From Nitrospinales bacterium (GTDB taxonomy: Bacteria; Nitrospinota; Nitrospinia; Nitrospinales; JAJDAT01), in assembly GCA_046757665.1 (NCBI GenBank), contig JBHHYO010000077.1:1-12253 (forward strand): a stretch of 12,253 nucleotides of DNA, in the 5' to 3' direction. The translations under genes were made by a program, and so were the position numbers. Position 1 is the stretch's first letter. Every line of letters begins with the position of its first letter. Below are positions 49 to 4,407 of this stretch, one piece after another. Below the pieces are notes generated by a model that was not told the DNA's origin, searched no databases, and was given only the letters and a program-made list of their open reading frames with translations.

Positions 49-2439
49 TTACAAATTTTCTTCCGGTTCCAGGCCGGATGAGCCGATGGGGTAATCCGGC
101 AGGTTGCGGGTCAGGAAGACCTCGAACTTGGCCTTGGGATCGGCGAAGTTGACGACCTTGCCGGTTTCGGGATCGATTTTCAGGAAAACGACGTCGTCGG
201 GGATGGGGAAGTTTTTTATCGGGGCGTCCCGGAGGGCGGCTTTCATGTATTGCAACCAGATGGGAATGGCCGCCCGGGACCCCGTTTCGTTGCGTCCCAG
301 GGATTCATCCTTATCGTTGCCCACCCACACTCCGGTGGCCAGTTCCGGCGTGTACCCCATGAACCAGGCGTCGACGAAGTTGTTGGTCGTTCCGGTTTTG
401 CCGGCGACGGGCCGTCCGAGCGCCCGGACTTTTTTCCCCGTGCCCTCCCGGACGACGCTTTGCAACAGGCTGGTCAGCGTATAAGCGACGCCGGGCGGAA
501 CGATTTGGCTGACTTCCGGTTCGTGCGTGTAAAGAATGTTGCCATTACGGTCCTCGATGAAACGGACGGCGGAGGGTTTGGCGCGGACGCCGAGGTTGGC
601 AAGAATGGCGTAGGCGGATGTCAACTCGAACAGGCTGACCCCGGAGGAACCCAGCGCGATGGAAAGGTTTTCTTCAAGTGGACTGGAAATTCCCAGGCCG
701 CGGGCAATCTCAATGGCCTTCTGCACACCGATGTCCCGCAGGAGCTTGATGGTGACGACGTTCCGCGAATGAGTGATGGCGGTGCGCAGGGACGTGGGGC
801 CGTAAAACTTTTCCTCGAAGTTGACGGGTTTCCATTTGTCAAAGGTGAACTCGGTTTCCTTGAAAATCAGCGGCGAGTCGATAATGATGCTTGCCGGCGT
901 GAATCCCTCGTTGATGGCGGCCGTGTAGATGATCGGTTTGAACGCGGAACCCGGCTGGCGAACCGATTGCCAGGCGCGGTTGAACTGGCTTTTTGAATAG
1001 TCGTATCCCCCGATCATTGCCTTGATGTGACCCGTTCGCGGGTCCAGGCTCAACAGGCTGGCTTCCACTTCCGGCTCTTGTTCCAGCCCCAGGGACCAGG
1101 TGAAATCGTCGTGGGTGCCGATGACCTTAACTTCGATGATGTCTCCGGCGGACAAGGCTTCGTCCGGACTCTTGATCCTTGCCCACCGCCCGTCGAGCTT
1201 GACGTTCGGTTGGCGTGCCCAGCGCATATTTTTCAATTTGAGGATGCCTTCGTTCTCTCCCAACTGGACGCGCACGTCACGCGAACCGACTTCCAGAACC
1301 ACGCCCTTGACAATATCGCCGATTTCCGGCGTCTGCCCGTCCTTGAAATTGTTGATTGCCATGACTTCTTTTTGTATGGCGGACAGGTCCCGGTTGATAT
1401 CAACGTGGCCGATCGGTCCCCGGTAGCCGTAGCGTTTGTCGGCCACGCGGAGATTGTGGCGGACGGCTTTTTGGGCGGCGAGCTGATAATTGATGTTCAG
1501 GGTGGTGTGCACCTTGAGTCCCGCCCGGTACAGCTTTGAGCTTCCGTAGGTGTCTTCGAGAAACTGGCGAATGTATTCGACGAAATAGGGCGCCTTGTTC
1601 AGCCGGTCGGCGATTTGCCCCAGTTTGATTTCGGATTTCATGGCCTGCTTCATTTGCGCCTGGGAGATGAAGTTGTTGCGCGCCATGTTGAGGATGGCGT
1701 GGTTGCGCCTTCTCTTTGCTTTTGCAGGATTGCGGTAGGGCGAATAGGAGTTGGGGGCCTTGGGCAGGCCGGCGATCATGGCGCATTCGGCGATGTCCAG
1801 CTCATTGACGTGCTTGCCGAAATAGGTGCGCGCCGCCGCCTCTACGCCATAAGCGCCGTGACCGTAATAAATCTGGTTGAGGTACATCTCCAGGATGTCT
1901 TTTTTGCTGAAGATCCTTTCAAGGCGGATGGCGAGGATGGCCTCGCGGATTTTTCGTTCGATGTTCTTTGCGCGTGACAGAAACAGCGTTTTGGAGAGTT
2001 GCTGGGTGATGGTGCTACCGCCCTCGACAATGCGTCCGGCTTTGAAGTTGGTGATCATGGCCCGGAAAATGGCCTTGAGATCGATGCCGGGATGTCTGTA
2101 AAAATTGGCGTCCTCCACCGCCAGCGTGGCTTGTTGCAGTTGTTTGGGGATTTTCTCCAGCGGTACGAGGATTCTTTTTTCGATATAAAATTCGGCGATC
2201 AACTCGTCGTTGTCGGAAAAAATTTGCGTGATGGTGCTGGGTTCGTAGGTTTTCAGGGTGCTGACGTCGGGCAGGTCCTTGGAATAATGGTAAAAGATAT
2301 AGGCCGCGCCGGCGAATCCGGTCAGCAGGCACATCAGGAAAAACCCGAAACAGGCGGTGAACAGGTTTTTCAGCAGGGAGCTTTTCTTTTTTTTCCTGCG
2401 GAGTTTTTTCCGTCGGGGTCTTTTTTCCGTTGCGCTCAT
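49..2439 (-). CDS. mrcA: Class A penicillin-binding protein 1A (bifunctional transglycosylase/transpeptidase)
   Basis: 796 aa. Basic cytoplasmic N-terminus and one TM helix; GT51 motifs EDANFYRHPG, GGSTITQQL, RKIRE, YLNQIYYG; OB-like insert; transpeptidase motifs SAFK (SxxK), SRN (SxN) and KTGT. Confidence 0.96.
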   Translation of the reverse strand: MSATEKRPRRKKLRRKKKKSSLLKNLFTACFGFFLMCLLTGFAGAAYIFYHYSKDLPDVSTLKTYEPSTITQIFSDNDELIAEFYIEKRILVPLEKIPKQLQQATLAVEDANFYRHPGIDLKAIFRAMITNFKAGRIVEGGSTITQQLSKTLFLSRAKNIERKIREAILAIRLERIFSKKDILEMYLNQIYYGHGAYGVEAAARTYFGKHVNELDIAECAMIAGLPKAPNSYSPYRNPAKAKRRRNHAILNMARNNFISQAQMKQAMKSEIKLGQIADRLNKAPYFVEYIRQFLEDTYGSSKLYRAGLKVHTTLNINYQLAAQKAVRHNLRVADKRYGYRGPIGHVDINRDLSAIQKEVMAINNFKDGQTPEIGDIVKGVVLEVGSRDVRVQLGENEGILKLKNMRWARQPNVKLDGRWARIKSPDEALSAGDIIEVKVIGTHDDFTWSLGLEQEPEVEASLLSLDPRTGHIKAMIGGYDYSKSQFNRAWQSVRQPGSAFKPIIYTAAINEGFTPASIIIDSPLIFKETEFTFDKWKPVNFEEKFYGPTSLRTAITHSRNVVTIKLLRDIGVQKAIEIARGLGISSPLEENLSIALGSSGVSLFELTSAYAILANLGVRAKPSAVRFIEDRNGNILYTHEPEVSQIVPPGVAYTLTSLLQSVVREGTGKKVRALGRPVAGKTGTTNNFVDAWFMGYTPELATGVWVGNDKDESLGRNETGSRAAIPIWLQYMKAALRDAPIKNFPIPDDVVFLKIDPETGKVVNFADPKAKFEVFLTRNLPDYPIGSSGLEPEENL

Positions 2440-2480
2440 TTTTTTGAGGTCGGTTTGGACGACCGGTTTGCGCCTCGCGG

Positions 2481-2507
2481 AGCCCCCGGAGGCAACTGCC
2501 GGGGGTT
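2481..2507. other. GC-rich intergenic hairpin between the DUF5069-like gene and PBP1A
   Basis: CCCCCGG (2483-2489) pairs with CCGGGGG (2499-2505), directly after the minus-strand TAA at 2507-2509. No U-tract follows on the minus strand, so it is not a classical intrinsic terminator. Confidence 0.4.
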
Positions 2508-2920
2508 TAGAGGCGGCCTTCTTCCAGGTCGATCAGGTCCACCCAGGTTTGAATGTCCGTTCTGGAGGGGTCGATAGCGTCGCGAAGTTCCAGAAATTTT
2601 TCCTTTTTTTCTTGCGTGTCGGGTTTCCGCCCGAGAATTTCCCGGTTGATCGACTGCTTTTCCTCCACGGCGCGGTCACGGATTTTTTCCTCAACCCAGC
2701 AGGCGAGGGAATCGTCCTCCTTGTCCTCCGCCCGTTGGGCGAACTCCTCTGCCGTCACGTCGAGGAAATTGAGGATGATGTTATCGAGAGGGCAGGGGAA
2801 GATGTATTCTCCCAAAGTCCCGGCGTTACGCGCCCGGGCTTTATCGATCATTCGCGGAATGTGAACCAGTCCGGCCAGGGTCTCTTTTGGACTGCGCGGA
2901 AACGTTTTTGTCAGGTTCAT
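2507..2920 (-). CDS. DUF5069-like domain protein
   Basis: From ATG 2920: MNLTKTFPRSPKETLAGLVHIPRMIDKARA...GTLGEYIFPCPLD..LNFL, matching my recollection of the DUF5069 signature (PRSP, PRMIDKARA, GEY, CPLD). 137 aa. An alternative ATG at 2971 has TAAGGA upstream. The track's TTG 3097 start lies inside a repeat. Confidence 0.8.
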   Translation of the reverse strand: MNLTKTFPRSPKETLAGLVHIPRMIDKARARNAGTLGEYIFPCPLDNIILNFLDVTAEEFAQRAEDKEDDSLACWVEEKIRDRAVEEKQSINREILGRKPDTQEKKEKFLELRDAIDPSRTDIQTWVDLIDLEEGRL

Positions 2921-2996
2921 GGGATTGCTCAAAAGGTTAGGCGAGCCGGGTTTCGATAGAGACCTTTGCATAACTCGAGATTCCTTAACCCCCAGT

Positions 2997-3101
2997 GTCA
3001 TCGCGAGCCGCCACCGCCGGCGTGGCGATCCAGCCGGGCCACGCCCGGTGGGAATGGGTCCTTTCTGGATTGCTTCGTCGGCGTCGTCTCCTCGCAATGA
3101 C
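2997..3101. repeat. CGTC-type REP / RPE-like palindromic element (about 105 bp)
   Basis: Outer arms GTCATCGCGAG (2997-3007) and CTCGCAATGAC (3091-3101), 10/11 complementary. Inner arms GCGATCCAG (3025-3033) and CTGGATTGC (3065-3073). Internal hairpin CCGGGC-cac-GCCCGG (3034-3048). Follows the known GTCATTGCGAG...GCAATC...GATTGCTTCG...CTCGCAATGAC repeat pattern. Confidence 0.85.
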
Positions 3102-3144
3102 GATCAAACAAGGATACTTATGCAAAACTCTCGTTCCGATAGGG

Positions 3145-3200
3145 CCGAAAAGCGCCGGAACAATCAATCAGTGTTGATTGACTGATCCGGCGCCTTCCGG
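3145..3200 (-). promoter_or_regulatory. Long mRNA hairpin covering the 3' end and stop codon of the ArfA-like ORF (candidate RNase III site)
   Basis: Minus strand: CCGGAAGGCGCCGGATCAGTCAATCA-acac-TGATTGATTGTTCCGGCGCTTTTCGG. 26-position stem with 22 Watson-Crick pairs, 3 G-U pairs and 1 U-U mismatch; 4-nt loop. The TGA stop is the first 3 nt of the 3' arm. Confidence 0.75.
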
Positions 3201-3344
3201 TTCCACTTTTTTCCCTTCGGTTCTCTTGTAGGTTTTTTTGGATTCCACGACCCGCTTGCGGAATTTCGGGTCGGACAAATTTTGGGCCACGGGATTATTT
3301 TCCCGGACCATTTTCCAGTTGGGTTTCGGTTTTTTTTGAGTCAC
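3168..3344 (-). CDS. Small basic protein resembling alternative ribosome rescue factor ArfA (58 aa; absent from the ORF track)
   Basis: Hand translation from GTG 3344: MTQKKPKPNWKMVRENNPVAQNLSDPKFRKRVVESKKTYKRTEGKKVEPEGAGSVNQH*. Strong SD AAGGAG (3355-3350) 5 nt upstream. Core NPVAQNLSDPKFRKRVVESKKTYKR aligns by eye with E. coli ArfA [28 protein letters not shown] (recalled sequence). Confidence 0.72.
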   Translation of the reverse strand: MTQKKPKPNWKMVRENNPVAQNLSDPKFRKRVVESKKTYKRTEGKKVEPEGAGSVNQH

Positions 3345-3382
3345 GGCTTCTCCTTTCGGGCGTGAGTGTTTGTAAACGGCGG

Positions 3383-3850
3383 TCAGTCCAGGCGGACCCT
3401 GGACAGCCGCGGAAAATTTTTTGACCGTTCGATGGCGCGTTTGCCCTCGGCGCCGATATGATTGCGAAACAAATCGAGCGTGGACAACTGCGGCAAGGTT
3501 TGCGAGGCGGCCAGATGCCGGGCGCCTGCCTCGCCGATTTCATTGAATTTTAAAACGAGTTGATCCAGCTTTCCCAGGGCCGGGGATTCTGCCAGCGCGC
3601 GGGCGCCCTCGGCGGTGATTTTGTTGGACTTCAAGTTCAGAATCCTCAAGTTGCCCAGATGGGGCGATTGTGCCAGGGCGGCCACGCCGTCATCGCCGAT
3701 TTCGTTGTCCCCCAGCAACAAGGCGGTCAGGTTTGCCGGCAATTCCATTTTAGCAAGTTTCGCGGCGCCTTCGTCACCGATTTTTTTATTCTCCAGGTCC
3801 AGCGTCCCGTCGCCCGCCAGGTTTTCCTGAACCAGTTTTTCAATGTCCAC
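3383..3850 (-). CDS. Small leucine-rich-repeat protein (ribonuclease-inhibitor-like/GALA-type 28-aa repeats)
   Basis: 155 aa, GTG start. About 5 tandem units such as LTALLLGDNEIGDDGVAALAQSPHLGN, LRILNLKSNKITAEGARALAESPALGK, LDQLVLKFNEIGEAGARHLAASQTLPQ, LSTLDLFRNHIGAEG. Confidence 0.9.
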   Translation of the reverse strand: MDIEKLVQENLAGDGTLDLENKKIGDEGAAKLAKMELPANLTALLLGDNEIGDDGVAALAQSPHLGNLRILNLKSNKITAEGARALAESPALGKLDQLVLKFNEIGEAGARHLAASQTLPQLSTLDLFRNHIGAEGKRAIERSKNFPRLSRVRLD

Positions 3851-4050
3851 GGATTTGCCCTCGATTTAGGAGCTTGCAGTGTAATTAATTTTTAAAGGCG
3901 GATCAAGGCGCGGTGGAAAAGAACAACAATGGGGACGCGGCCAAGCAGGGTTTTATAGCGGAAATTGATATTTTCAAAGCTCAATGAACATGGTATATTT
4001 AAATTTACAAAATTCAAGCCTGAAATTCGCTAATTTTCCAGGGGGTTGAC

Positions 4051-4407
4051 ATGAGAAAAATTCTGATGATTCTGGCCGTGTTGTTTTTTGTTTCTTCCTT
4101 GACGGCTTTTGCCGGCAACGAAGGCCCGATGCATTTCCCGAAAGGAGCCAATGCCGAGGCCAACATGCATAACGAAGAAGGTATCGCCGCATGGAACAAA
4201 GGCGATATCGAGGGCGCGCTGATGCATTTTCAGGCGGCGTCGAAAATCGACGGCAGTATCGGCGAATCCCATTTTAACGAGGCGGTTTGCCTCGACAAGC
4301 TGGGCCGGCACGGCCTCGCGGCAATGCACTTCAAGGCCGCCAAATCAAACGCCCACGGCAACAGTAAAATTTTGAATTCCCCGATCCTCAACGCGCATCT
4401 GCACTGA
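4051..4407 (+). CDS. Secreted TPR-repeat protein, Met/His-rich
   Basis: 118 aa. Sec signal peptide MRKILMILAVLFFVSSLTAFA|G; two TPR-like units (HNEEGIAAWNKGDIEGALMHFQAASKID and HFNEAVCLDKLGRHGLAAMHFKAA). SD-like AGGGGG at 4040-4045. Confidence 0.8.
   Translation: MRKILMILAVLFFVSSLTAFAGNEGPMHFPKGANAEANMHNEEGIAAWNKGDIEGALMHFQAASKIDGSIGESHFNEAVCLDKLGRHGLAAMHFKAAKSNAHGNSKILNSPILNAHLH

Follow-up and report, generated by a model that had tools for sequence, protein, structure and literature searches.

The window analysed here (12,253 nucleotides, positions 1 to 12,253 of contig JBHHYO010000077.1 in the Nitrospinales bacterium assembly GCA_046757665.1) carries a gene of 58 codons, read from the minus strand, whose stop codon opens one arm of a long RNA hairpin. 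The small gene, the parts of the hairpin and the neighbouring genes are laid out as follows.

3383-3850, minus strand: LRR_6 leucine-rich-repeat protein of 155 amino acids, 38 nt upstream of the small gene (ORF list)
3350-3356, minus strand: Shine-Dalgarno-like AAAGGAG, 5 nt before the GTG (sequence)
3168-3344, minus strand: small basic ArfA-like protein ORF, 58 codons, GTG start, TGA stop (ORF list)
3222-3296, minus strand: conserved core, codons 17-41, NPVA..L..P.FR.RVV.SKK.Y.R, set against ArfA residues 14-41, including the RF2-contact segment (alignment A2)
3175-3200, minus strand: 5' arm of the hairpin, codons 49-57 (RNA fold)
3171-3174, minus strand: tetraloop ACAC, consisting of the third base of codon 57 plus codon 58 (RNA fold)
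3145-3170, minus strand: 3' arm of the hairpin, opening with the TGA stop at 3170-3168 (sequence and RNA fold)
2507-2971, minus strand: DUF5069 protein, downstream of the small gene (ORF list)
49-2439, same strand as the small gene: class A penicillin-binding protein (PBP1A), downstream (ORF list)

The order of LRR gene, small gene, DUF5069 gene and PBP gene is common only to the locus of L044, the closest relative. Between the hairpin and the DUF5069 gene we observed an element of about 175 nt (2957-3134) with a 15-nt inverted repeat (2959-2973 / 3118-3132) and near-identical flanking 9-mers (TATCGGAAC / TATCGAAAC). It is missing at this spot in L044, folds at -80 kcal/mol and recurs as more than 100 BLAST segments of 70-95% identity on many contigs of the genome; it looks like a MITE-type insertion. 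The window DNA is present in two DNA sequencing runs, both from a single metagenome study of a hydrothermal vent.

Judged from comparison of related sequences, the 58-amino-acid ORF is a real coding gene. At the codon where the window gene has GTG, L044, whose protein is 88% identical, has ATG, preceded by AAAGGAGG at the place of the Shine-Dalgarno-like sequence, and across codons 16-42 the two genes are separated by four synonymous changes and a single non-synonymous one. In the conserved core of a second pair, L005 and L006, eight changes are synonymous and none is non-synonymous.

Three close relatives, at 88, 78 and 73% identity, were found in an index of 5.8 billion proteins, and an ORF search of 61 related genomes also yielded homologues of the small protein; three weaker genome matches were dropped, as they lie inside large unrelated proteins. 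The family profile retrieved 359 proteins at E<=1e-3 from 1.84 billion representatives. Ten clusters of profile matches were looked up for names, and the sole name found was that of an off-size protein (453 aa) in one of them. Within the phylum the profile matches 32 of 120 genomes at E<=1e-4, 20 of them at E<=1e-19. The range is patchy: matches occur in all five genomes of family f4, in 16 of the 21 of f3 and in 10 of the 70 of f2, and in none of five genomes from the other genus in the family to which the window genome belongs or of 18 from other families. Related loci recovered from metagenomes come from records titled Nitrospinaceae or Nitrospinota.

Eight residues of the protein are invariant in the family (P18, A20, L23, R29, S35, K37, Y39 and R41; alignment A2, 20 sequences), and the best-conserved stretch is the one that corresponds to the RF2-contact segment of ArfA. 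In every alignment, F28 and K30-R31-V32-V33 of the window protein fall opposite F25 and Q27-R28-V29-E30 of ArfA, and the family has Y or F at the contact position followed by an invariant R (A2). ArfA F25 and Q27-E30 are described as contacting RF2 and adding a strand to its sheet (PMC8012679). Beyond R41 the window protein ends in TEGKKVEPEG, a tail with little net positive charge and no KH motif; the tails of other family members are more basic (A2). The full-length window product is also without a hydrophobic destabilising tail, which many of its own relatives have.

Direct and indirect tests gave different answers on the family to which this protein belongs. The Pfam ArfA model (PF03889, gathering threshold 25.5 bits) left the ORF unmatched at E<=10, was silent at the ORF in a six-frame search of the genome, and matched none of the 20 family members; the ORF was equally unmatched in NCBIfam, and the family profile A2 found no chain among the PDB sequences at E<=10. 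The DUF7230 model (PF23876, threshold 27 bits) also left the window ORF unmatched at E<=10, and six of the 20 family members match it below the threshold, the best at 18.8 bits. No paper in the literature searched uses the name DUF7230. The indirect route runs through a bridge protein of 55 residues, L027, encoded by an Oleiphilaceae genome at the single gammaproteobacterial locus that came out of the genome scan. It scores 26.0 bits on Pfam ArfA against the cut-off of 25.5 and 24.8 bits on DUF7230 as well, and shares 44% identity with the window ORF across 41 residues (E 5e-10). When the window ORF is taken together with its 149 best profile hits, 40 of these 150 sequences match DUF7230 and five match ArfA at E<=0.01. 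A second-round profile made from the 150 (A3) retrieved six E. coli ArfA chains from the PDB, at E 2.1e-5 to 1.5e-4, with ArfA the only solved protein found and the next match an unrelated one at E 0.55. One profile match, P0152, combines the NPVAK core with ArfA's KGKGSY in a single protein.

Profile-profile comparison with hhalign gave 91% (E 1e-6) against an ArfA alignment that included the bridge, 13.9% (E 0.002) against four canonical ArfAs without it and 36.7% against E. coli ArfA alone, the register unchanged in the latter two, so that the result against the small ArfA alignment hinges on one sequence. A complex prediction combining the genome's RF2 (an alignment of 30) with the family alignment scored 0.04 against a mark of 0.32 and provides no evidence either way. 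The first-pass annotation had called the gene ArfA-like: homology through intermediates and the wider profile speaks for that call, and the lack of a match between the ORF and Pfam ArfA itself speaks against it. Because the direct model tests fail and the indirect profile and bridge tests succeed, we file the window gene within an ArfA/DUF7230 superfamily and outside the present definition of Pfam ArfA.

The hairpin occupies the end of this gene. On the minus strand, positions 3140-3205 fold into a single structure of 25 pairs (22 Watson-Crick and three G-U) plus one U-U, entered from the ORF at codon 49, which starts at 3200. The first-pass annotation had drawn a 26-position hairpin of precisely this composition with the TGA opening its 3' arm, and the fold reproduces it exactly. 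The minimum free energy is -44.1 kcal/mol (z -9.66), and none of 200 dinucleotide shuffles is equally stable. Folding both strands, which had been suggested as a check, favours the minus strand: the plus strand reaches -35.2 kcal/mol (z -5.87), with the three G-U positions open as gaps in the helix, and the proposed strand bias is real. It also holds that the conserved core lies wholly upstream of the stem, since the invariant residues from P18 to R41 all precede it (A2). Such stability is exceptional at a stop codon in this genome. Taking the most stable 66-nt segment covering each of 3930 other stops, all at the ends of open frames 200 codons or longer, we found none at or below -44 kcal/mol and one at or below -40, the minimum being -40.4. 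At E<=1, no Rfam family matched anywhere in the window. The 66-nt hairpin is single-copy in the genome, and an origin from a repeat or mobile element was rejected on this ground; the adjacent repeat is a separate element.

For comparison across the family, we took 22 distinct core-family genes whose frames match the A2 profile at E<=1e-19, searched from -110 to about +100 nt around each stop, and scored the most stable stem-loop against shuffles. Of these 22 genes, 19, from seven of eight genera, have a hairpin of 22-30 pairs with its beginning within the ORF, the genes being kin and the counts accordingly not independent. In 18 of them it could be scored (z -4.9 to -10.8), and L081 has the same hairpin further upstream in a longer frame, as seen from the fold only. 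No such hairpin is found in L003, L010 and L021, all of genus g9; L003 and L021 are two paralogues of the small gene in one genome, G020, and L010 is their same-genus orthologue. The earlier reading was to be given up if orthologues lacked a hairpin over the stop codon. The 19 carriers speak for it. The hairpin straddles the stop in six (the window gene, L044, L005, L006, L007 and L014) and lies wholly before it in 13, ending 3-32 nt upstream, or about 70 nt in L081. In 16 of the 18 scored genes the main stem starts 8-14 codons past the conserved Y-x-R (+8 in the window gene), the exceptions being L044 (+6, where the outer stem extends further) and L078, which is without the search motif.

The arm sequences differ between clades, and many of the differences preserve pairing. 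In the 28 pairs compared between L005 and L007, eight are changed on both sides and kept, six are changed on one side and kept, and two are broken; the 27 pairs compared between L004 and L012 give eight, five and two. Between the window gene and L044 the stem shows G-U to G-C, G-U to A-U and A-U to G-U changes; the main stem also holds one C-A mismatch, and pairing is broken twice in the peripheral extension. A structural alignment of 18 sequences (A4) has 82.8% of its cells paired, against 33-52% when the partners are slid by 1-3 columns; double changes occur at 18 of its 28 pairs (reached by three of 500 shuffles) and in 55 cells (reached by none of 500), figures that favour themselves to some degree, as the structure was taken from one member and the sequences are related. 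RNAalifold on a plain MAFFT alignment gives a weak consensus of -4.3 kcal/mol, because the arms do not line up between clades. Covariation of the stem had been named as a further check, and the orthologues show a hairpin at the same place, differing arms and compensatory changes. The hairpin is a selected RNA element.

Beyond the orthologue set the picture is mixed. Ten distinct, weaker relatives within the phylum (E 1e-7 to 1e-15) gave no hairpin of this kind by the same search, nor did a metagenomic clade of six genes give a convincing one. Two more canonical ArfA genes of the Oleiphilaceae order have in-frame hairpins, and in the Oleiphilaceae ArfA the UGA lies within the 3' arm of a 28-pair hairpin that is followed by UUUUU. 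We also observed a freshwater metagenome clade (L045-L048 and L055, five distinct genes) of 45-residue relatives with UAA in the 3' arm of an A/U-rich hairpin of 23-30 pairs, followed by U-rich sequence, in which changes between copies preserve pairing. A marine metagenome clade (L057-L068, eight distinct genes) has a FRKRVVESKK core, a long acidic C-terminal extension and no stop hairpin, and may be a phage-type DUF7230 branch.

The hairpin might instead be an ordinary 3'-end element, a weak terminator or exonuclease barrier that happens to overlap the stop, with normal translation as far as the TGA and no control by tmRNA. We think this unlikely, though it is the alternative that fares best. 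The layout is not foreign to it: any transcript ending after the stem keeps its stop, UUUU comes after a GC-rich inner stem (GGCGCCGGA/UUCCGGCGC), the bona fide Oleiphilaceae ArfA described above has the same arrangement with UUUUU after its stem, and two metagenomic relatives, L056 and L063, have plain hairpins past their stops. Termination at the UUUU (3151-3148) had itself been put forward as the outcome that would overturn the idea of a non-stop message. It is unlikely as a selected function, because the four U are paired within the 25-pair stem, the closest relative has UUUC in their place, a terminator scan of 2400-4200 returned no site, and a run of at least four U at the 3' end of the hairpin occurs in only four of 18 orthologues (L009, L080, L007 and L005). 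In an intrinsic terminator a U-rich tract comes straight after a GC-rich stem; the window hairpin has no such tract, with no U among the eight nucleotides past the full stem. A simple end-of-gene terminator also leaves unexplained why the homologous hairpin lies wholly in frame in 13 of 19 orthologues, and in L044 the ATG of the next gene, on the same strand, follows the hairpin by about 40 nt, which disfavours efficient termination there.

RNase III acts on near-perfect double-stranded RNA of about two turns, some 20 bp or more. The stem, with its 25 pairs and one U-U, has the form of such a substrate, and the genome encodes the enzyme (133.5 bits).

The closest precedent is arfA of E. coli. 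Its mRNA is described as becoming non-stop through an RNase III cut or termination within a stem-loop, and the product of this message as being tagged by tmRNA and degraded unless trans-translation is overloaded; ArfA keeps its full activity after losing 17-18 residues, and no more than 46-48 of its residues adopt an ordered form on the ribosome (PMC8012679, PMC8874680). The basic C-terminal tail with its KH motif fills the empty mRNA channel (PMC8012679). By our fold, the E. coli hairpin has -46.6 kcal/mol and a stem that begins at codon 51, 10 codons past R41. The window gene resembles this system in encoding a small basic protein with the conserved core in the same register, and in the long near-perfect hairpin that begins soon after Y-x-R (+10 in E. 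coli, +8 here). It differs in several respects: the E. coli hairpin lies wholly within the ORF, whereas the window's stop opens the 3' arm; the E. coli hairpin encodes a hydrophobic tail that destabilises the full-length protein, which the window protein does not have; the GKG insertion and KH motif of E. coli ArfA are missing; and the host belongs to the Nitrospinota instead of the beta- or gammaproteobacteria, with Pfam ArfA failing to recognise the protein.

A second precedent is provided by B. subtilis brfA and some proteobacterial arfA genes, which share with the window gene a hairpin before or over the end of the frame, and for which a stop-less message and gating by tmRNA are described (PMC8874680, PMC8012679). 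There the hairpin is an intrinsic terminator placed before the stop, unlike the window's, which has no U tract after its stem and where termination after the stem would retain the stop. The DUF7230 family, finally, consists of small basic proteins with the shared core N-P-x-A-K...Y-R-x-R-V-x-S-K-K-x-Y-x-R, even if the window ORF itself is not matched by its model.

Our preferred reading, which we regard as reasonably probable from these comparisons, is that the locus would work as a non-stop switch of the arfA type, with RNase III the probable cutting enzyme. As a divergent member of the ArfA/DUF7230 superfamily, a group of small basic peptides that bind the ribosome, the protein would most likely act together with a release factor to rescue ribosomes that have stalled at the 3' ends of stop-less mRNAs, and the hairpin would serve to remove the stop codon from the message. 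Because the hairpin is unlike an intrinsic terminator, a cut by a double-strand-specific enzyme, most probably RNase III, would be the likeliest route to a non-stop message. As the stop stands in the 3' arm, the cut would have to fall in the 5' arm or the loop to yield one. On the cut message a ribosome would run to the end and stall there. With tmRNA-SmpB available the peptide would be tagged and degraded, and with trans-translation saturated a peptide of about 50-55 residues would escape tagging, build up and assume the task of rescue. Uncut mRNA would be expected to give a stable, possibly active protein, because the full-length product of 58 residues is without a hydrophobic tail, and the switch may then be leakier than that of E. 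coli or reliant on efficient cleavage. A transcript that ends past the hairpin, or is trimmed back to it, retains the stop, and this counts against the switch.

The non-stop design might be real and the peptide something other than a rescue factor, namely another ribosome- or RNA-binding peptide of the DUF7230 type with its level gated by tmRNA. We consider this improbable. The family does stand nearer to DUF7230 (matched by six of 20 members and 40 of 150 hits) than to ArfA (none of 20 and five of 150), but its best-conserved stretch is the one aligned to the RF2-contacting segment of ArfA, and canonical ArfA is the only solved protein that the extended profile reaches. Least probable of all, and to our minds very doubtful, is a processing site for RNase III or another enzyme that separates the LRR, small ORF and DUF5069 cistrons and sets their relative stability, with loss of the stop incidental: the small ORF follows the LRR gene by 38 nt on the strand of the DUF5069 and PBP1A genes, and RNase III is encoded in the genome, yet these neighbours recur only at the 88%-identical L044 and at no other orthologue locus, and since the hairpin travels with the small gene across genera (seven of eight) it is a feature of that gene, not of the operon.

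The non-stop switch that we favour calls on tmRNA-SmpB and a release factor. The genome, at 97.6% assembly completeness, encodes SmpB, RF1 and RF2; neither an ArfB-sized RF-1 domain nor NFACT_N/RqcH was found in it. A search of the 160-contig assembly (G000) with Rfam RF00023 and ARAGORN did not find tmRNA, which is full-length and above the cut-off in all 14 relatives searched, and its absence from the assembly is probably a gap, the gene having been left unassembled. Across the phylum, ArfB (NF006718) is above the cut-off in one of 120 Nitrospinota genomes, and 88 of the 120 are also without a match to the ArfA-like profile; with these queries, most of the phylum is without a recognisable back-up to trans-translation. 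Found in a single genome, ArfB does not make up for a missing ArfA-like gene elsewhere, and the comparison is uninformative on function.

The published range of ArfA is a subset of the beta- and gammaproteobacteria (PMC8012679, PMC8874680, PMC11633108), and a 2024 survey of 15,259 genomes also counts arfA in 10 Bacillus species (PMC11633108). The same survey lists a Nitrospinae group of two genomes with smpB and ssrA and without arfA, arfB, smrB and rqcH (PMC11633108). In the literature searched, this survey and its preprint were the only works to bring ArfA and Nitrospinota together. The principle is already known; what is new is the phylum, the protein family and the frequency with which the stop lies in the 3' arm, a layout shared by four genera of Nitrospinota, the freshwater clade and one true ArfA.

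We tentatively entertain a broader view, in which ArfA is one branch of a much wider superfamily in which the non-stop hairpin is an old means of control, retained repeatedly, the family is the sole back-up to trans-translation in those Nitrospinota that carry it, and the stop in the 3' arm is a distinct variant of the switch; this seems to us a serious possibility, still short of a probable one. Under such a view the superfamily would comprise ArfA, DUF7230 and the Nitrospinota family, and ArfA would not be an invention of the beta- and gammaproteobacteria. In the variant with the stop in the 3' arm, uncut mRNA would give a stable full-length factor, and only cut mRNA would be gated by tmRNA. 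The hairpin placements seen in the family (in frame, over the stop, or absent) form a natural series for probing the non-stop switch. If the preferred reading is true, surveys using current ArfA models would undercount release-factor-dependent rescue, and the family would fill the reported rescue-factor gap in part of the Nitrospinota.
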